64,000 nucleotides of DNA from Bacteroidales bacterium (GTDB taxonomy: Bacteria > Bacteroidota > Bacteroidia > Bacteroidales > P3), in the NCBI GenBank assembly GCA_041673165.1, contig JBAYYI010000003.1:2090-66089 (forward strand). The letters run 5' to 3'. A model generated the notes under the pieces. It had not been told where the DNA came from. It ran no database searches and was given only the letters and a program-made list of their open reading frames with translations. The position numbers and the translations under genes were made by a program. Below, piece after piece: positions 3,623-61,799 of this stretch. Within the stretch, counting starts at the first letter, position 1; each line of letters starts with the position of its first letter.

Positions 3623-4834
3623 ATGATAAGCAAGTCATTAGACATTGCTATTGCTGACTTTGATTATGCTTTGCCAGATTATAGAATTGCAAAGTTCCCT
3701 CTAAAGGAAAGAGATAAGGCTAAGCTTTTAGTTTTAAAAAATGAGGCAATTTCAGAGATACCATTCTTTGAGTTGCCTCAACTTTTAGATAAGGATACTC
3801 TATTAATATATAACGACACAAAAGTAGTTCATGCAAGGCTTTTCTTTAAGAAAGAGACAGGCTCTATGATTGAAGTTTTTTGTCTTGAACCAACTGACCC
3901 AAATGAAATCCAAATAGCTTTTGCACAAAAAGGATTAGGAAGATGGAAATGCTTTATTGGCAATAATAAGAAATGGAAAAGTGGCATACTAACCAAGACT
4001 ATTGAATTTGAAGGCAAGATAATTGAACTTTGTGCTGAAAGAGAAGTGCAGATTGATAATGCTTTTATAGTTAAGTTTACTTGGACTAAGGAATATTCTT
4101 TTGCTGAGGTTCTTGCTCTTATGGGAATTATTCCCCTGCCTCCTTATCTGAATAGAGAAGCAAGGAAAGAGGATAACGATGATTACCAAACAATTTATGC
4201 AATCGAGGAAGGCTCTGTTGCTGCACCTACTGCAGGATTACATTTCACTCAAAAAACATTCTTAGACCTTGAAGAAAAACAAATAAACTCAAGCTTTGTT
4301 ACTCTTCATGTTGGAGCTGGAACCTTTAAGCCTGTTAGCACCGACTCAATTTCTGAGCACGTAATGCACACCGAAAAAGTCACATTAACAAAGGAGGTCA
4401 TTAAGGATTTAATAAATCATATTGATAAGAAGATTGTTTGTGTGGGCACAACCTCAGTTAGAACAATAGAAAGTCTTTATTGGCATGGAGTTAAGCTAAT
4501 TGAAAACAAAGACACTGACTTAGAAATTGATATTCAACAATGGGAGCCTTACCAAAAAGAAACCCTAATTAGTCCTAAGCAAGCCCTTCAAGCAATAATC
4601 GAAAAAATGGGAGATGAAGACTTAATTTGTGGACAGACCCAAATCATTATTGCACCTTCTTATAAATATAGGATAGTAAAGGCAATGGTAACTAATTTTC
4701 ACCAACCTAAAAGCACATTATTATTATTAGTATCGGCAATGATAGGTGAGAAATGGAAAGAATGTTATAATTTTGCCTTAGAAAATGATTTTAGGTTTCT
4801 ATCATTTGGTGATGCATGTTATTTTGAGCCATAA
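3623..4834 (+). CDS. queA: S-adenosylmethionine:tRNA ribosyltransferase-isomerase
   Basis: 403 aa. QueA motifs: IAKFPLKERDKAKLLV, PLPPYL, YQTIYA, GSVAAPTAGLHFT, LHVGAGTFKPV, VGTTSVRTIES. Confidence 0.9.
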   Translation: MISKSLDIAIADFDYALPDYRIAKFPLKERDKAKLLVLKNEAISEIPFFELPQLLDKDTLLIYNDTKVVHARLFFKKETGSMIEVFCLEPTDPNEIQIAFAQKGLGRWKCFIGNNKKWKSGILTKTIEFEGKIIELCAEREVQIDNAFIVKFTWTKEYSFAEVLALMGIIPLPPYLNREARKEDNDDYQTIYAIEEGSVAAPTAGLHFTQKTFLDLEEKQINSSFVTLHVGAGTFKPVSTDSISEHVMHTEKVTLTKEVIKDLINHIDKKIVCVGTTSVRTIESLYWHGVKLIENKDTDLEIDIQQWEPYQKETLISPKQALQAIIEKMGDEDLICGQTQIIIAPSYKYRIVKAMVTNFHQPKSTLLLLVSAMIGEKWKECYNFALENDFRFLSFGDACYFEP

Positions 4835-40520: not shown

Positions 40521-41498
40521 TTAGAATATCTCTTCTAACATCCTTAAATAAAGGTCTTTTGTTGTCCATCCCATTGTTTGAACTTGCTTTGGAACAATGC
40601 TCTGTGAAGACTGACCAGGAATAGTATTTACTTCTAAGAAAAATAGCTCTTCTTTCTCGCTATCATATATAAAATCTATCCTACAAACTCCCTTACAATT
40701 TAACTGCTTATAGATTTTCTTTGCAGTAGATTGAACTTCTTCTCTAACCTTATCTTCAATCTCTGCTGGGGTTATCTCTGCTGTTGAACCGTCATACTTA
40801 GCTTGGTAGTCGAAAAACTCATTAACAGGAATTACTTCGGTTATTGGAAAAGCAATTACCTCATTCCTTGTTTCCAAAACCCCACAAGTAAGTTCCCTAC
40901 CCTTAATAAACTCTTCAATAATCACTCTTTCATGAATCTTAAATGCAGTTTCTATTGCCTCTTTTAGGTCTTCTTTTCTCTTAACCTTAGTCATACCAAT
41001 GCTTGAACCCCCTTCTGAGGGTTTAACAAAAAGGGGTAAACTAAGTTTCATAAGAATATCATCAACACTTACTTGATTGTTTTTATAGAAGCTAATATTC
41101 CTTGCTACCCTAACAACATTCAATTCCCTAACAACAGCATTGCAAACAACCTTGTCGAAAGTTATTGCAGAAACCAATGAGCTACAAGAAGCAAAAGGAA
41201 TATTCATCATCTCAAAATAAGCTTGCAAAAGACCGTTTTCGCCTGGTGTGCCATGGACTATTATAAACACTCCGTCAAAACTAATCTTCTTATCTTCTAA
41301 TCTTAGAGAGAAATCATCCTTATTTATATTATATCTCTTGCCTTCAAGTTCGTAGTACCAATCTCTTTCCTTAAGAATAATCTTATAAACATTATAAATT
41401 GACTTATCAATGTTTTCTTCAACCTGAATTGCAGAACGAAGAGAAACCACAGCCTCTTCACTATTCCCCCCAGCCATTAATGCAATATTCTTTTTCAT
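40521..41498 (-). CDS. ddl: D-alanine--D-alanine ligase
   Basis: 325 aa. GGNSEE, HGTPGENG, an ATP-grasp region (PLFVKPSEGGSSIGM) and FLEVNTIPG. Confidence 0.9.
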   Translation of the reverse strand: MKKNIALMAGGNSEEAVVSLRSAIQVEENIDKSIYNVYKIILKERDWYYELEGKRYNINKDDFSLRLEDKKISFDGVFIIVHGTPGENGLLQAYFEMMNIPFASCSSLVSAITFDKVVCNAVVRELNVVRVARNISFYKNNQVSVDDILMKLSLPLFVKPSEGGSSIGMTKVKRKEDLKEAIETAFKIHERVIIEEFIKGRELTCGVLETRNEVIAFPITEVIPVNEFFDYQAKYDGSTAEITPAEIEDKVREEVQSTAKKIYKQLNCKGVCRIDFIYDSEKEELFFLEVNTIPGQSSQSIVPKQVQTMGWTTKDLYLRMLEEIF

Positions 41499-41540: not shown

Positions 41541-42005
41541 TTACTGTTCAAATCCCTCACATTCATGCTTTGTACATATAATCCCCTCTTGCCCAAACAC
41601 CTTTTCATTCAAGAAGAAGAACATATGATTTATCTCTAAACTAATACGGCGAAACTCTTCTAAGATAAACTCTTTCTCTCCCTCTGCCTTGGATGGGTCT
41701 TCAAAACAGTAGTGTAGGAAGTTCTTAGCTTCACCCGTAAAATAAGGGCATCTCTCTTTTGCATTATCACAAACAGTAATCACATAATCCCATTCCTTAT
41801 CTAAGAACTCATCAACTCTTTTTGGCTTATTTGAAGAAATATCAATACCATTTTCTTCCATAACCCTAATAGCTAATGGGTGAACTTCATTTGCAGGTAT
41901 TGTTCCTGCTGAGTAAACATTTAGGGAAGGGTTTATTTGTTTTAGCCAAGCTTCTGCCATCTGTGAGCGGCATGAATTGCCTGTGCAAAGTATTAGTATG
42001 TTCAT
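41541..42005 (-). CDS. Low-molecular-weight phosphatase family arsenate reductase-like protein
   Basis: 154 aa. ILILCTGNSCRSQMAE (CX5R P-loop) and the VCDNAKERCP Cys pair typical of thioredoxin-coupled ArsC. Confidence 0.7.
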   Translation of the reverse strand: MNILILCTGNSCRSQMAEAWLKQINPSLNVYSAGTIPANEVHPLAIRVMEENGIDISSNKPKRVDEFLDKEWDYVITVCDNAKERCPYFTGEAKNFLHYCFEDPSKAEGEKEFILEEFRRISLEINHMFFFLNEKVFGQEGIICTKHECEGFEQ

Positions 42006-42343
42006 AAGTTATCTTTTAGCTCTAAGAGGAATTCTTTTATTTCATTAAGCGAACGAACAAGCTCAACATTAACAGTATTGTTCTCGTCCTTAGTTTCTGT
42101 TGTTACCTTAGTTTTCAAATAGTTCTTTGTTCCGTCAATAGTATATCCACAGGTTTTAGTCAGATAGTGGATTTGCTTTAGGAGTTCAATATCTTTCTTA
42201 GTATAGAACCTTACTCCCCTCTTATTCTTATGAGGTTTGATTTGAGAAAATTCTGTTTCCCAAAATCTAAGAGTAGGTAAACTAACGTCCAATTCCTTAG
42301 AAACCTCTCCAATACTATAATATAATCTATTTGAATCTTCCAT
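42002..42343 (-). CDS. MerR family transcriptional regulator
   Basis: 113 aa. N-terminal HTH: YSIGEVSKELDVSLPTLRFWE...RFYTKKDIELLKQI. The stop overlaps the start of the downstream phosphatase gene. Confidence 0.75.
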   Translation of the reverse strand: MEDSNRLYYSIGEVSKELDVSLPTLRFWETEFSQIKPHKNKRGVRFYTKKDIELLKQIHYLTKTCGYTIDGTKNYLKTKVTTETKDENNTVNVELVRSLNEIKEFLLELKDNL

Positions 42344-42347
42344 TTCT

Positions 42348-42713
42348 CTAATAAGGCATTGGTGTAAAGGCGTTTTCTATATGATTTATCTTTGTGCCAC
42401 TTTCATTTGTAACAATAGCTATTATATCAAATCTTGCTTCTTCGTTAATGTTGTTTCTCACTATATAACTATTGGCAACCTTTATTATTGCTCTTTGTTT
42501 CTCTTTTGTAACCGCAGATTCAGGCTCGCAAAATACATCATTGCTCCTTGTCTTAACCTCAATGAAAACAACCTCTCCACTATTTCTTGCAATAATATCA
42601 ATCTCATTCTTCCCACTCCTATAATTCCTTTCCAAGATGATATAATTCTTCTCAATCAAATACTCTAAGGCTAACCTCTCTCCCTTTTGTCCAAAAACAT
42701 ACGATGTATCCAT
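42348..42713 (-). CDS. YraN family (UPF0102) predicted endonuclease
   Basis: The track ORF starts at 42773. I moved the start to the ATG at 42713 (MDTSYVFGQKGERLALEYL) to avoid overlap with mrr. EIDIIA...VVFIEVKTR is the PD-(D/E)xK-like YraN core. Confidence 0.7.
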   Translation of the reverse strand: MDTSYVFGQKGERLALEYLIEKNYIILERNYRSGKNEIDIIARNSGEVVFIEVKTRSNDVFCEPESAVTKEKQRAIIKVANSYIVRNNINEEARFDIIAIVTNESGTKINHIENAFTPMPY

Positions 42714-42735
42714 TTTCTTTATCCCTCTCAATAAA

Positions 42736-43602
42736 TTAAAAGTATCTCTCAAAGTAAGAAATATCTGGTTCATATACTGTTTTAGCTGTTACACCTAATT
42801 CAATATCTTGAAACATTTTTTCTAAATCTTGACCATCAATTAATTCTAATTTAGATTTTTTATCTTCTTCAATTCTTCGAGCTTCTTTTGAAAAGTTTCC
42901 TGTTGTAATAAATAACATCCTATCTTTATTCTCTGCAACACTGCAAAAGGCATGTACATCTTTTGTTGGAACGGAACCTTCGTATCTTTTGCATTGGAAA
43001 GCTATTTGATATTTAATAAATGGATTTATTTTAAGAGTAGCGTAACCATCAATCCCACCATCATGAGATAGTTGAGTAATTTTAATATCTTCAAAGTTGT
43101 AATTTCTTAATAATTCTCCACATAATTTTTCAAATCCTTCGGGAGATACTTTTTTGATAATGCTTAATAAAGAAGTGTTTTTTAATAAGATATTTTCTTC
43201 TGGCTCTTCAATATTTATTTTTTCAGTAGGTTTTTCTTTTTCTTTTTTTTCTATTTTAATTTTTCTATTAAGAGTTGTCCATTTCTTATATATTCTAAGA
43301 GCTTCATCATCATTAAAACTTTTAGCTTTTTCAATTCCCTTATCGGTTAAAGTCCATATTCCCCTAGAAGAAGAAGATAAATAACCTTCCCAAATTAAAT
43401 ATTGACGGGCAAATGCAACTTGATTATTAAATATCAATGCTCCGCTCTTAGGGTACCTCTTATTTAAGAGCTCTTCATCTAAGTTTTCTTTATCTGCAAT
43501 CTTTTGACTTACTTCATTAGGAGTTGCTGACCCAAGCTCTAATAATACATCTAATAATGGTTTAAACCATCTAACAAACTGAACAGTTTTCTTTGCTTTC
43601 AT
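42736..43602 (-). CDS. mrr: Mrr-type restriction endonuclease (Mrr_N winged helix plus Mrr_cat nuclease)
   Basis: 288 aa. The C-terminal domain carries DGGIDGYA...IAFQCKRY...LFITTGNFSKEA, the PD-(D/E)xK core of Mrr. The N-terminal region resembles the Mrr N-terminal wHTH. Confidence 0.8.
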   Translation of the reverse strand: MKAKKTVQFVRWFKPLLDVLLELGSATPNEVSQKIADKENLDEELLNKRYPKSGALIFNNQVAFARQYLIWEGYLSSSSRGIWTLTDKGIEKAKSFNDDEALRIYKKWTTLNRKIKIEKKEKEKPTEKINIEEPEENILLKNTSLLSIIKKVSPEGFEKLCGELLRNYNFEDIKITQLSHDGGIDGYATLKINPFIKYQIAFQCKRYEGSVPTKDVHAFCSVAENKDRMLFITTGNFSKEARRIEEDKKSKLELIDGQDLEKMFQDIELGVTAKTVYEPDISYFERYF

Positions 43603-43606
43603 AATA

Positions 43607-44521
43607 TTATTCTTGCTCTATAATTACTTTAAATTTTTCTACAGTCAAGGTAGTTTTTCTTCCAATAACATAAGCTTGGTTGTTTTCTTTTATATGTCCA
43701 ATTGGAATGTTGAAAGCAACTGGGAAATCATAGTCTTGGACAGTATCCATAATTATTCTATGTGGAGCTTTCCCAAATCGAATAAAATTATCGTGCATAT
43801 CAGTCATTCCTCCAACAATTAAACCCTTCAAATCCTTTAACTTACCTGCTCTTCTCAAAGCCTGCATCATCCTATCGATATGATAAATATACTCGTCTAA
43901 GTCTTCAATAAATAAAATCTTGTCTTTAGTGTCGCCAAAGCTATTTGAACCAAGCAAGCTATAAAGAACCGATAAGTTTCCCCCAATAAGTTCTCCCTCA
44001 GCCTTGCCTTTCCTATTCATTATATACTTCTTATAATAGTTTTTGTTCTCTCCCTCAAACAATATCTTCTTTAAACTAATCACAGCATTTGAAAAGAAAT
44101 CATCCTCCGTAATATTAATAGGCATAATTGCGTGAATGGTTTCAATATTATAGTTGAAATAGATATGGGAAAGCAAGACCGTTGGGTCAGAATAGCCTAT
44201 TATCCATTTAGGGTTTTGAATAAATAAAGAGAAATCAAGCAAATCAATAATCCTAACAGTCCCATAACCCCCTCTTGCACAAAAGATAGCTTTTATCTCC
44301 TTATTATCTAAGAAAGATTGCAAGTCCTTAGCCCTCTCATTATCAGAACCAGCAAATTGATTCTTTTTCAAACCAATGCTTTTCCCAATAACAGGCACCA
44401 AACCCCAAGAAACAAGTAGCTTAATCGTAGCCCCCACCTCCTCAATACTAATCTTACGAGCAGTTGCAACAATCCCAATCTTATCTCCTTTCTTAAGTAG
44501 TTCCGGTCTCTTAGTCATCAT
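43607..44521 (-). CDS. LD-carboxypeptidase (peptidase S66, muramoyltetrapeptide carboxypeptidase-like)
   Basis: 304 aa. Motifs: GDKIGIVATA, FCARGGYGT, IGYSDPT (nucleophile Ser), GH near the C-terminus. Confidence 0.8.
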   Translation of the reverse strand: MMTKRPELLKKGDKIGIVATARKISIEEVGATIKLLVSWGLVPVIGKSIGLKKNQFAGSDNERAKDLQSFLDNKEIKAIFCARGGYGTVRIIDLLDFSLFIQNPKWIIGYSDPTVLLSHIYFNYNIETIHAIMPINITEDDFFSNAVISLKKILFEGENKNYYKKYIMNRKGKAEGELIGGNLSVLYSLLGSNSFGDTKDKILFIEDLDEYIYHIDRMMQALRRAGKLKDLKGLIVGGMTDMHDNFIRFGKAPHRIIMDTVQDYDFPVAFNIPIGHIKENNQAYVIGRKTTLTVEKFKVIIEQE

Positions 44522-44537
44522 TATAATTTATAGAAAG

Positions 44538-44545
44538 CAAAGATA
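44538..44545 (-). promoter_or_regulatory. -7 box TATCTTTG (LD-carboxypeptidase / mrr / yraN / merR unit)
   Basis: Plus-strand CAAAGATA, 17 nt upstream of the ATG at 44521. Confidence 0.45.
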
Positions 44546-44758
44546 CTTAAAAAGAAATAAATAATTGTACAAATTGATTATTAAATCTGATAACTTAGGG
44601 TTTAGCAAATGAATAACACTATAAACCACAAGAAAAACTTTAAATAAATTAATCTCACTCAATACTTATTTCTTACAAACTAAAATCAGGACGATAAAAA
44701 CAAATGTAAATTGCATTTATGCTTAGTTCGAAATCTTTAAACCTTGATTTGTACGGAG

Positions 44759-44792
44759 GAAACGAAGGTTTACACTTTTTAATCTTCGTTTC
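44759..44792. repeat. Perfect 9-bp hairpin GAAACGAAG / CTTCGTTTC with a 16-nt loop
   Basis: 44759-44767 pairs with 44784-44792. It immediately precedes the 22-bp array. Confidence 0.7.
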
Positions 44793-44800
44793 GATCTCCA

Positions 44801-44882
44801 ATTCATGCCATGATATGACCAACTTCATGCCATGAATTGGGAACTATCATGGCATGATGTTGACGGTATCATGGCATGATTC
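44801..44882. repeat. Four 22-bp units, two TCATGCCATGA followed by two TCATGGCATGA, forming an 80-bp dyad
   Basis: The word starts at 44803, 44825, 44847 and 44869 (exact 22-bp step). The two halves are reverse complements of each other. Confidence 0.9.
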
Positions 44883-44943
44883 TTTGATTGAAGTGGCGAT
44901 TTAGGAGTTTGTTTCTTTGTTTTTGGACTAGGAAATGGGCAAA

Positions 44944-44978
44944 GAAAAAAGGACAACCTTGTGGGATTGTCCTTTTTC
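44944..44978 (-). terminator. Bidirectional hairpin terminator downstream of the PpiD-like gene
   Basis: AAGGACAA (44949-44956) pairs with TTGTCCTT (44967-44974). An A-run lies on one side and a T-run on the other. It sits 28 nt beyond the stop at 45006. Confidence 0.7.
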
Positions 44979-45005
44979 TTTATTTTGGGTTTGGGTGTTT
45001 TTGGT

Positions 45006-47141
45006 TTAGAAGAAGAAGCTAAAGTTATTTTGTACTTTTGCTTTTTCTTGAAGTACTTGAAGTGGAAGACGAAGTTGTGATGTCTTTTGCATATTCTTCA
45101 TATCAAATGATTGTTGTATCATTTGTGGGTCTTCCTTGGTTTCTCTCTTACTAATGGCATCAACGTTTACAATATAGACTCCGTTATATCCCTTGATTGG
45201 TTTTTGGATTCCTGTTTTTGTTGCTGCTGCAAGGGTTCCGATTACTCTCATTTCTGGTCCTGCTTGAACGAAGTATGGGTCGCCAAATGAAACGTTTGCT
45301 GCTGTGTCAACGGTTGTGTTTTCTTTTAATGATATTGCGTCAAGTGTTTTTTCGCTTGCTATTAACTTGTCTGCTTTCTTCATTAAGATTTCTGCTTTCT
45401 TATCCATTCTTACCATGTTTTCAATAAATGGTTTTACTTGGTCAAGTGGTAAGATGCCTTTTTCTTTAATATCTTTTACTCCTACTACAAGGAACATATC
45501 TGTTAGTTCGTATATTTCTGGTGCAACATCGCCTTTCTTTGTGTCTTTGTTGAATACCCAACGTACTATCTCTCTTGCATAAGGGGTTCCGTTTAGTTGG
45601 AAGTCCATATCTCTAAGTTGTGAGGTTAGGATGTTTAGGTTTTGTTTTTGTGCTGCTGTTGTGAAGCCTGCCATGTTGGTTGATGCTCCTAAGAAGTTGT
45701 TTGCATTATCACGGATTTCATTAACTGTTTTTTCGCTTGGGCGTATTTCCATAACAATTGTTGCAACTTGTAGTTTGTTTACTGGGTTTGTTTTTCCTGT
45801 TACTTTAATTAACATATATCCCATTCCGTTTGGTATCTCATAAGTAAATACTCCGTTCATTGGAGTTGTGTTAACTAAGTTGTAAAGGTCTGATTGAAGT
45901 TGACCATCTAAAAGCCAGCCAGAATCTCCCATGTTTTTCTTTGCCTCAGGGTCGTCAGAGTATTTTGCTACGTTGTTTTCAAATCCTGCTGCATCTTTAC
46001 TTACTATTGAATAAACGCTATCTTTTAGTTTTGTTGCTGCTTCTTCATTTCTTTTTATCTCTCCTCCTGCTGTGCTGTTAAGGATTAGAATTCTGGAGAA
46101 ACGAACTGAGTCTGGGCGTGCTTGCATTGCTGTAAGTTTTGCCATTACCCAGTTTCCTCCGTTTTGGAATGGTGCGATGAAACTACCTATGCTTGCTTTT
46201 GAAAGTATTGAATCTGGTATTATTTGTTCAAATTGCTCTCTCTTATAGTAGTTACTGTCATAGTATTGATCTGATACGTTTGAGATAAATCCTGGAATTT
46301 CAATTGAAGATATCTCTTGGAATTGAGCATAGGTTGAGATTACTGAATCGTTAATTGCTTTTATGTCTGCTGGTGATGGAACGATTGGGAATTTAACAAA
46401 CTCAACATCACGCATTGATTCGTTTAGTTTAAATTCATTCTTATGTTCATCATAGTATTTCTTGTAATCAGCTTCTTCAATCTTAATTGTGTTGTCTGCA
46501 ACTGCTGAGAAAGGAAGAAGTGTATAACGAGAGTTTGTTGTCTTGTCGTAAACTGAGCTAAGGTGTGCTGCAATTGCTTTTGGCATATACATACTCTTAG
46601 CAAGTAGTTTCTCGTATTTTTCTTGTAAACGGCTCTTCTTAACATATTTTTCAAAGTTTCTCCAAGATGCTTGTTCTTCTGCAGGAAGTTTATCAAACTG
46701 TGCAATGTATTGTGATATTGCTTGTTTGTTATAGTTTCCTGTTTGAGGGTCTGAGAAGTTTTGAATAACCATTGGATGAATGAAGTTTCCGAAGAACATA
46801 TCATTTAACTCTTCTTTCCCAACACTAATACCAATTTTTTCATACTCAGCTGACAATAGCTTTTCGTTTAAAAGTTCTTGATAAGCTTGTTGACGTACAG
46901 TATAGCTTTGTTCAGGGTTTAAAGCATCAGTCTTATACTGTTGTTTCATGTTTGTTTCAATATTTTGAGACATTTCTTCAAACTCGTTCCTTGTGATTTC
47001 AACACCATCAACTGTTGCTATGTTATTAGGTGCACTTGTGTTCTTTGTAAATATGTCACTGAAAACAAATGATAAGATAGCTATTGCTATGATTGCAACT
47101 GCTATTCCCGCTCTTTTTCTGATTCTACCAATAATCGCCAT
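45006..47141 (-). CDS. Periplasmic chaperone / peptidylprolyl isomerase (PpiD/SurA-like)
   Basis: 711 aa. N-terminal membrane anchor (AGIAVAIIAIAILSFVF), a SurA_N-like helical region and a central parvulin-like segment. Confidence 0.7.
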   Translation of the reverse strand: MAIIGRIRKRAGIAVAIIAIAILSFVFSDIFTKNTSAPNNIATVDGVEITRNEFEEMSQNIETNMKQQYKTDALNPEQSYTVRQQAYQELLNEKLLSAEYEKIGISVGKEELNDMFFGNFIHPMVIQNFSDPQTGNYNKQAISQYIAQFDKLPAEEQASWRNFEKYVKKSRLQEKYEKLLAKSMYMPKAIAAHLSSVYDKTTNSRYTLLPFSAVADNTIKIEEADYKKYYDEHKNEFKLNESMRDVEFVKFPIVPSPADIKAINDSVISTYAQFQEISSIEIPGFISNVSDQYYDSNYYKREQFEQIIPDSILSKASIGSFIAPFQNGGNWVMAKLTAMQARPDSVRFSRILILNSTAGGEIKRNEEAATKLKDSVYSIVSKDAAGFENNVAKYSDDPEAKKNMGDSGWLLDGQLQSDLYNLVNTTPMNGVFTYEIPNGMGYMLIKVTGKTNPVNKLQVATIVMEIRPSEKTVNEIRDNANNFLGASTNMAGFTTAAQKQNLNILTSQLRDMDFQLNGTPYAREIVRWVFNKDTKKGDVAPEIYELTDMFLVVGVKDIKEKGILPLDQVKPFIENMVRMDKKAEILMKKADKLIASEKTLDAISLKENTTVDTAANVSFGDPYFVQAGPEMRVIGTLAAATKTGIQKPIKGYNGVYIVNVDAISKRETKEDPQMIQQSFDMKNMQKTSQLRLPLQVLQEKAKVQNNFSFFF

Positions 47142-61373: not shown

Positions 61374-61799
61374 ATGCCAATAAAATATTTTAGATTAAAG
61401 AAGAAAATTACAATAAACTCAATTCCGGTGGATAGGTATATTGCTAATATTCAAATCGAAACCAATGCTGACCTTGAAATGATTTCGGAGATAATTGAGA
61501 AGCAAAGTACTATGAGTAGGGGTGATATTATGGGAGTGCTTGCTCAACTTGAACCTGCAATTTGGTTTATGCTGGAAAATGGACATCCTGTAACGCTTGG
61601 AGTTTTAGGGACTTTCTATCCTGCAATTGATGCATTGTCGATGGATAGCCCAGAGAAAGTTACTACTAGGACTATTAAAAGATTTAGAACAATTTTCAAG
61701 CCCTCAAAATATCTAAAGAAAAGGTTTAAAGATGTACAATTTGTTCTTGGCGACAACAAGGTCAGGGAAGTAAGATACAAGAAAAAACCTCTTGAATAG
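61374..61799 (+). CDS. HU-family (Bacteroidota histone-like) DNA-binding protein
   Basis: 141 aa. The pattern EMISEIIEKQSTMSRGDIMGVLAQLEPAIWFMLENGHPVTLGVLGTFYP....KRFRTIFKPSK resembles the Bacteroidota-specific HU-like family often found in accessory islands. Confidence 0.6.
   Translation: MPIKYFRLKKKITINSIPVDRYIANIQIETNADLEMISEIIEKQSTMSRGDIMGVLAQLEPAIWFMLENGHPVTLGVLGTFYPAIDALSMDSPEKVTTRTIKRFRTIFKPSKYLKKRFKDVQFVLGDNKVREVRYKKKPLE

Follow-up and report, generated by a model that had tools for sequence, protein, structure and literature searches.

The element described here is an array of four palindromic words, TCATG(C/G)CATGA (written TCATGSCATGA below, where S is C or G), situated between ldcA and a ppiD-like gene in a 64,000-nucleotide stretch of Bacteroidales DNA, the whole of which is referred to as the window. 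The array represents one solo member of a dispersed, lineage-restricted family of bounded arrays and does not serve the ldcA-merR unit as a private operator. With modest confidence, and on the basis of sequence comparison, its probable role is that of a solo docking platform for four dimers of an HU-HIG protein. This reading draws on the observed dispersal and phasing of the words, selection on their arms, the symmetry of their centres, the linkage of arrays to HU-HIG genes and the co-occurrence of genes and arrays across genomes.

The four words stand at an exact 22 bp step, as originally predicted, and at least five word matches were found in none of 100 shuffles of the window, none of which reached the observed count. 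The window's genome (G000) is that of an uncultured member of the Bacteroidales (2.25 Mb, 33% G+C, 145 contigs, 95% complete). A genome-wide search for the word recovered a real phased family: 41 exact words are present where 0.8 are expected from base composition, and all 41 fall in ten intergenic arrays with the same exact 22-bp step, leaving no solitary words. Nine of the ten arrays consist of four words and one of five. One-mismatch variants are at or below background (16 vs 27 expected) and none occurs near any of the ten arrays, which indicates that there are no decaying copies. The genes beside the arrays are unrelated (ldcA/ppiD, gyrB-like, uvrB/S46 peptidase, uppS, gldF/sprA-like, aroK, femAB-like and flippase-like) and their orientations match random intergenic placement; a shared regulon was rejected on these grounds.

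Beyond this genome, 10 of 16 congeners contain word pairs at the 22-bp step, as does one further genus of the family; a sample of 16 genomes from other families of the order yielded none. Arrays of at least three words occur in ~12 Bacteroidales metagenome-assembled genomes in a search of one genome from each of 185,579 species, and a check for phage origin found no three-word array in IMG/VR. Among the family's 53 non-redundant arrays, 39 contain exactly four words. In another genus of the family (G017), L001:1440-1700 is a G+C-richer mosaic with three CTCATGCCATGAG words at 22 bp. It is flanked by other phased families (AACCTGGTT... and CCACCCTTTCAGCAC), with no HU-HIG gene within 1.5 kb.

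In G000 and its sisters G005 and G014 (LdcA 89% identical), the spacer between ldcA and ppiD contains the array. The same spacer is array-free in G002, G011, G012 and G007, where the terminator of the ppiD-like gene and the presumed promoter box of ldcA (TATCTTTG) are retained; it measures 195–283 bp in these four genomes vs 436–497 bp in the three filled ones. Selection was examined in 14 well-registered orthologous comparisons of G000 with G005 or G014, excluding two comparisons mis-registered by one unit and one trivially identical pair. The ten arm positions of the words show no change in 560 sites, the spacers 142 changes in 462 (31%) and the flanks 421 in 1834 (about 23%). The centres of the words were flipped between C and G in 25 of 56 cases (45%), and never replaced by A or T. 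The arms of the words are under strong purifying selection, and the difference between arms and spacers, together with the free flip of the centre, is an unusually clear sign that the cell makes use of solo arrays. Position-specific composition across 117 spacers is also symmetric (W-n-Y-n-R-n-Y-n-R-n-W), and each 22-bp unit is therefore two-fold symmetric about both the word and the spacer. The combined pattern of arms, centres and spacers fits a symmetric dimer reading double-stranded DNA, rather than a neutral minisatellite or a decaying MITE (a miniature transposable element with inverted repeats).

Between species, one array (C74, compared with L058) differs by inversion of a block that comprises a spacer and the two centres next to it (TGTTGGTCAAT vs ATTGACCAATA). 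The array upstream of the HU-HIG gene on C48 shows CA to TG centre inversions within a single array. Block inversions between palindromes suggest template switching or recombination between them.

Two of the ten TCATGSCATGA arrays lie just upstream of paralogous 141-aa HU-HIG genes. The array at C98:150-237 precedes the gene C98:418-843, and that at C137:863-961 precedes C137:300-713. TCATGSCATGA words also precede orthologues of the C98 gene in seven congeners. The C98 protein is assigned to HU-HIG (PF18291, E 3.6e-23), and the AlphaFold2 model of the HU-HIG protein (predicted local distance difference test score 88) has 4FMR, HU and IHF as its top PDB matches. There are 14 full-length PF18291 genes in G000, one of them at a contig edge. 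The upstream DNA can be read for the other 13, and in 12 of these a phased array is located in the ~400 bp upstream. Every paralogue, or pair of near-identical paralogues, has a word of its own (Table 1), and these words cover most of the dispersed 21–23-bp families of the genome. At HU-HIG loci of other genomes (n=66, including Bacteroides spp. and Prevotellaceae), phased words occur within 450 bp upstream in ~42 cases and downstream in one. A Bacteroidetes-type -7 box is often located within ~10–35 bp of the gene-linked arrays, and this closeness fits an operator role for them. The window has an HU-HIG gene of its own (61374-61742, C3:63463-63831), which is preceded by a different 21-bp array of four AGCTTAT-type units and by AAACCGCCGGTTTTTG words.

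Phased words of this kind are a general feature of the genome. Fixed-step 9-mer arrays with at least three copies number 35, 38 and 16 at periods of 21, 22 and 23, with 0–2 at each other period from 15 to 35. The ~90 arrays with periods of 21–23 bp sort into ~10 word families, nearly all of them palindromes with an asymmetric centre of 1–4 nt; examples are TGAATCAAAGAA, AAATTAATACGC, GCTAAGATGTACATCTTAGC, CTTGSCAAG and TGACATGGGTATGTCA. These data bear out the suggestion, made from the window alone, of a common phased architecture that uses different recognition words.

The proteins and the words preceding their genes are also related. Eight proteins from seven species are encoded behind TCATGSCATGA words. 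They are 58–88% identical to the C98 protein and form one clade (clade A; Shimodaira–Hasegawa-like approximate likelihood ratio test support 94). Their nearest relatives are preceded by TAATG-, CAATG-, GAATG- and AAATG-S-CAT words, and all words of the form xxATG-S-CATxx map to a single larger HU-HIG protein clade. Residues E35, E41, K77 and W85 mark the TCATG class, W85 aligning with the HU arm residue R55. From the fold assignment and this class-specific arm residue, the HU-HIG protein is a candidate for specific binding to the word.

Across congeners, a clade-A gene is present in eight of 11 array-positive genomes and in none of six array-negative genomes. One of the array-free genomes (G007) retains a C-terminal clade-A remnant (L089, G007:C14:916-1128, LKGIGVFGVWVTS...) that is fused to unrelated upstream sequence and keeps the K77 and W85 signature. 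Comparable associations are seen for other words. TAATGSCATTA arrays are abundant only in genomes with a gene preceded by TAATGSCATTA, plus G009, and in G011 and G012 the sole TAATGSCATTA array is the one at the gene, which suggests that the gene-linked array is the primary one. Arrays of GACATGGGYATGT are found only in G000, G005 and G006, with a gene preceded by GACATGGGYATGT in G000 and G006.

At C7:40738-41200, G000 has a cassette of ~181 bp with four CTCCCTTGCCAAC units at 22 bp, where the same flanks in G005 (L059) and G014 (L050) hold a ~184 bp cassette with four TCATGSCATGA units at 22 bp. At C6:8812-9728 an outer-membrane-protein-like gene in G000 takes the place of a ~480-bp non-coding segment in G005 (L037) and G014 (L069); that segment contains a TCATG array with the leader and tail of the gene-linked C98 copy. 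Arrays therefore turn over as cassettes of ~180–195 bp. No target-site duplication is visible at the C7 site, and in the alignment of filled and empty ldcA-ppiD spacers the boundaries are too uncertain for a duplication to be judged.

Based on these observations, the following mechanism is proposed. Each unit consists of the 11-bp two-fold symmetric word TCATG-S-CATGA and an 11-bp, weakly symmetric spacer, with four units in most arrays. Each word would dock a homodimer of one HU-HIG paralogue with the HU/IHF fold, encoded by C98:418-843 and by a second copy on C137. The 22-bp step (approximately two helical turns) would place the four dimers next to one another along a single face of the DNA, which could yield a compact, bent nucleoprotein particle of ~88 bp. 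We infer the binder, its stoichiometry and its effect on DNA and transcription from the sequence patterns described above. At the protein's own gene the array would probably mediate autoregulation. Solo copies such as that in the window would serve as extra high-affinity sites with an architectural, insulating or titrating role, and would be held by selection in the host, though not specifically for the adjacent genes.

A broader generalization, which is put forward tentatively and with somewhat less confidence than the role of the window array, is that HU-HIG paralogues may be architectural proteins with a private code. Each paralogue would have its own palindrome, regulate itself through its own array and mark ten to several dozen further sites with four-dimer particles, while protein and word co-diversify and arrays turn over as cassettes. 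HU-HIG genes are massively expanded in the Bacteroidota (gut Bacteroides, Porphyromonas) with no known function, and 21–23-bp repeats like BrickBuilt also lack an explanation; if every paralogue were to read a phased array of its own, both puzzles would share one testable answer. In such a code, bacteria would have their counterpart of a growing DNA-binding family that is matched to dispersed repeats. The locus offers a clean pair of reagents, namely the C98:418-843 protein and a site of 88 bp in which every word has ten invariant positions.

Several observations weigh against this interpretation. The one published analysis of HU-HIG proteins argued that they are unlikely sequence-specific factors (PMC5499826). 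Three array-positive genomes (G004, G006 and G013) have no identified clade-A gene. Of these, G006 is 76% complete and G013 is fragmented, with the DNA upstream of its candidate masked. G004 is 98% complete and has three arrays, and the nearest paralogue there carries A(C/G)ATGSCAT(G/C)T, which shares the CATGSCATG core. There are 23 TAATGSCATTA pairs in G009, and the single clade-B gene examined in that genome carries CAATGSCATTG. A gene preceded by GACATGGGYATGT was not identified in G005 despite its GACATGGGYATGT arrays, nor was the cognate gene of the largest 22-bp family (GCTAAGATGTACATCTTAGC, ~20 arrays) found in the 145-contig assembly, where the only candidates left are HU-HIG fragments located where contigs end. 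Different arrays stand upstream of HU-HIG genes whose proteins are 99% identical, consisting of three AAGATGyrCATCTT words at 23 bp in L104 (G007) and five GGTAAGGTGGCAGGTTACT words at 22 bp in L152 and L157; arrays are therefore exchangeable before an unchanged gene. The second gene-linked copy also calls for caution. Contig C137 (2.9 kb) is 100% identical over 208 bp and 99% identical over 662 bp to contig C83 of G014 (L052), while the two genomes otherwise differ by ~10%, and the contig may be mis-binned or recently exchanged. Finally, the congeners are kin and not independent samples, and the clustering of proteins and words on the tree is partly phylogenetic inertia, with gene and array inherited together.

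One alternative is a mosaic repeat that is selfish and non-autonomous, of the kind seen in BrickBuilt or MITE-minisatellites, which recombination or a host transposase would have spread and which no dedicated binder would read; placement beside HU-HIG genes would then reflect insertion preference or hitch-hiking. Patchy, lineage-restricted spread (10/16 congeners, ~12 genomes among 185,579 species), filled and empty orthologous ldcA-ppiD sites, the cassette replacement between identical flanks on C7, synteny breaks adjoining arrays, mosaic flanks with shared modules and the array swap before a 99% identical protein are all in keeping with it. However, the orthologous, immobile copies retain every arm position while their spacers diverge, where decay or spacer-homogenising conversion predicts otherwise, and G000 has no degenerate copies. 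The arrays also lack nearby IS5-type BrickBuilt terminal inverted repeats, a RAYT (repetitive extragenic palindrome-associated tyrosine transposase) gene and a target-site duplication at the C7 swap site, and their strong preference for four units is unlike a slipping minisatellite. A selfish origin of this sort is considered unlikely. Selection and symmetry demand a symmetric reader without naming one, and an array for some other sequence-specific dimeric protein, such as a ribbon-helix-helix or helix-turn-helix factor whose gene travels with the arrays, would accommodate the G004 arrays that have no clade-A gene. Yet no other gene recurs beside the arrays, the link to HU-HIG is near-universal and paralogue-specific, and the co-loss in G007 involves the HU-HIG gene itself; a different binder thus appears improbable.

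The possibility of a structured RNA or single-stranded DNA element, with words 1:4 and 2:3 pairing in a long hairpin that acts as a transcript stabiliser, terminator or small RNA, arises from the window copy itself. The region 44755-44895 has a predicted RNA fold of -63.6 kcal/mol (z = -9.5), and the array lies just downstream of the ppiD-like gene. A scan of 43500-46000 with Rfam 15 returned only sub-threshold matches to microRNA-like hairpins (26.7 bits vs gathering thresholds of 67–89). The window copy does have the 2+2 dyad of the original prediction, but the dyad is not a family feature: among 39 four-word arrays the centre patterns are CCCC in 14, CCGC in seven and CCGG, the dyad arrangement, in five, with others making up the remainder. 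Mirrored spacers fared similarly. They match at 6 of 11 positions in the window, but across the family the complementarity of spacers 1 and 3 is no better than for spacers paired between arrays (4.87 vs 4.69 +/- 0.31). The strong fold of the window copy is thus due to its particular centre pattern, and a whole-array dyad or long hairpin was rejected for the family. Arms are kept without covariation, free centre flips leave C-C or G-G mismatches in most arrays, and copies occur in both orientations and in all gene contexts. In addition, the ppiD-like gene has its own terminator, which is kept in array-free genomes. An RNA function therefore seems quite improbable. Less probable by far is the role that the original prediction had proposed, in which the MerR-family regulator, whose gene is 2 kb away, would bind the array as a local operator of the ldcA-mrr-yraN-merR unit. 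The merR gene was confirmed at 42002-42343, and proximity is what speaks for it, the array being 282–358 bp upstream of the ldcA start (44521). There are, however, ten dispersed copies, nine of which have unrelated neighbours, and G002, G007, G011 and G012 keep the operon and the TATCTTTG box with an array-free spacer. A MerR orthologue occurs in every one of the 17 congeners, six of which have no array at all. A MerR operator is a single dyad within the promoter spacer, in contrast to the four sites repeating every 22 bp here, and the array is at least 260 bp from the ldcA -7 box. Neither the regulatory assignment nor the choice of MerR as binder could be upheld, and docking of HU-HIG dimers remains the preferred reading of the array.

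At the locus itself (Table 1), all seven genes are on the minus strand, which places the array just after the ppiD-like terminator and between it and the ldcA promoter region. The core promoter of ldcA is judged to be independent of the array because its box is kept in array-free congeners. A scan with sigma-70 and terminator models gave nothing above shuffles, although these models do not cover Bacteroidetes promoters. The hairpin noted originally to the left of the words is a real inverted repeat. Compensatory change has not preserved its arms in the orthologue from G005, in which GAAACTAAG is opposite CTTCGTTTT, and the same word type occurs upstream of the HU-HIG gene C40:1494. The pair looks like words of the 21-bp TGAA(A/T)C(G/A)(C/A)AG family rather than a conserved hairpin. 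The array is bordered by words of other families, with GAAACGAAG and its complement on the left and CTTTGATTGAAG and AAGTGGCGATTT on the right. Relatives of the tail words lie upstream of two HU-HIG genes, AAA(C/G)(G/T)GGCGTTT words at C42:1700 and TGAATCAAAG-type words at C40:1494.

Table 1. Features of the array locus (window coordinates), followed by the words found upstream of HU-HIG genes in G000
Feature	Position	Strand	Remarks
Palindrome word 1, TCATGCCATGA	44803..44813	.	5-1-5 palindrome with centre C; arms invariant in G005 and G014 orthologues; centre is G in G014
Palindrome word 2, TCATGCCATGA	44825..44835	.	From sequence and orthologue comparison
Palindrome word 3, TCATGGCATGA	44847..44857	.	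Palindrome of words 1 and 2 with centre flipped
Palindrome word 4, TCATGGCATGA	44869..44879	.	From sequence and orthologue comparison
Three 11-bp spacers	44814-24, 44836-46, 44858-68 (span 44814..44868, words 2 and 3 between)	.	18–33% diverged from G014/G005 orthologues
Inverted pair GAAACGAAG / CTTCGTTTC	44759..44792	.	Arms 44759-44770 and 44781-44792, 12 nt, 92% complementary
Tail words TTCTTTGATTGAAG and GAAGTGGCGATTT	44880..44902	.	Two other word families
Leader module (AAATCAGGACGATA...AAATGTAAATTGCATTT...)	44683..44757	+	Common to C98 (gene-linked) and C8 arrays; from comparison of flanks and of the C98 and C43 upstream regions
Segment present in G000, G005 and G014, absent from the orthologous ldcA-ppiD spacer of G002	~44768..44938	.	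MAFFT alignment of four intergenic regions; edges approximate, AT-rich DNA making the boundaries uncertain
Terminator hairpin of ppiD-like gene	44946..44977	-	Kept in genomes without the array
Presumed Bacteroidetes-type -7 box TATCTTTG	44538..44545	-	17 nt before ldcA start; kept in array-free congeners; labelled from the TAnnTTTG consensus of Bacteroidetes promoters
ddl	40521-41498	-	
Low-molecular-weight phosphatase	41541-42005	-	
merR	42002-42343	-	
yraN	42348-42773	-	
mrr	42736-43602	-	
ldcA	43607-44521	-	
ppiD-like gene	45006-47141	-	
HU-HIG genes C98 and C137			Upstream word TCATGSCATGA, period 22
HU-HIG gene C43			Upstream word CTTGSCAAG, period 22
HU-HIG gene C7			Upstream word GAATGSCATTC, period 21-22
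HU-HIG gene C42			Upstream word AAA(C/G)(G/T)GGCGTTT, period 22
HU-HIG gene C6			Upstream word GACATGGGTATGT, period 23
HU-HIG gene C48			Upstream word GATGyrCATC, period 23
HU-HIG gene C40			Upstream word TGAA(A/T)C(G/A)(C/A)AG, period 21
HU-HIG gene C17			Upstream word GAAACrsCGTAwTAATTT, period 21
HU-HIG gene C18			Upstream word CTGAATCACTGA, period 21

The nearest described repeat is BrickBuilt, a minisatellite/MITE of Porphyromonas gingivalis and P. gulae (Klein et al. 2015, PMC4596501). Like the arrays described here, it belongs to the Bacteroidales, is strictly intergenic and lineage-restricted, has ~20 copies per genome and no known function (PMC4596501). It also repeats every 23 nt, each unit being divided into a conserved and a variable half, and has leader and tail modules. 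One copy in P. gingivalis, BrickBuilt_14, adjoins PGN_0872, an HU-family gene. In P. gulae DSM 15663 (NZ_KB899167.1, L188:3765-4500) a BrickBuilt-type array of nine 23-nt units ends ~95 bp ahead of an HU-HIG homologue whose ATG is at 4059. The repeat as published may thus be a site array of the adjoining HU-HIG protein, with which BrickBuilt_14 and PGN_0872 would be consistent. The paper itself, however, proposes no binding protein (PMC4596501). The BrickBuilt unit (AGACCATAGTATCCTCTCATATG, 23 nt) is unrelated to TCATGSCATGA with its 22-bp period, and its copy number ranges from 1 to 22.8 in contrast to the strong preference for four units here. BrickBuilt also has IS5-type terminal inverted repeats (GAGACCTTTGCA / TGCAAAGGTCTC), which had no match with up to two mismatches in the non-coding DNA around the ten arrays; the sole match within 600 bp is inside the ldcA coding sequence. 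Membership of the arrays in BrickBuilt was rejected for lack of these repeats and because the unit is unrelated.

The arrays also resemble the repetitive extragenic palindromes (REPs) and bacterial interspersed mosaic elements (BIMEs) of enterobacteria, which include the IHF-binding RIB/RIP elements; these are dispersed, intergenic palindromic mosaics located after gene ends, some of them bound by proteins of the HU/IHF family. REPs, however, are imperfect palindromes of 35–40 nt that are read as hairpins by a RAYT transposase and have no exact two-turn phasing, and IHF recognizes one general site, in contrast to a private word for each paralogue here. A REP/BIME system with RAYT was excluded, since no match to the Y1 transposase family of RAYT (PF01797) was found in G000 (95% complete), where control genomes were matched. 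Iterons (pPS10, and the 22-bp iterons of R6K) and ParR/omega-type centromeres consist of 3–10 sites with ~20–22-bp spacing on one face of the DNA, are bound cooperatively and autoregulate the gene of the binder. Iterons, in contrast to these ten chromosomal copies of orientation-free palindromes, are direct, non-palindromic repeats that a replicon carries beside a rep or par gene. Genes of these two types are absent from the surroundings of the ten arrays, whose flanking genes are housekeeping genes, and the likeness is in geometry only; membership in this group was rejected.

The HU-HIG clade of the HU/IHF superfamily (PF18291; PDB 4FMR) has been described as enigmatic and suggested to intercept invading DNA (Burroughs et al. 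2017, PMC5499826). Its published lineage-specific expansion and rapid divergence (PMC5499826) are matched by the 14 paralogues of G000. The same paper makes no mention of cognate arrays (PMC5499826), and no literature linking HU-HIG proteins to phased arrays was found. The arrays can be grouped in an informal class, defined by a short two-fold symmetric word in 3–7 copies at an exact step of 21–23 bp with variable spacers. The window array has palindromes at an exact step, an array of the same word before an HU-HIG gene and co-occurrence with that gene (8/11 vs 0/6), and on these grounds belongs with the HU-HIG-linked phased arrays. If the private code is true, it would provide a function for the enigmatic HU-HIG expansion of the Bacteroidota, and the BrickBuilt repeat of Porphyromonas would be recast as such a site array.

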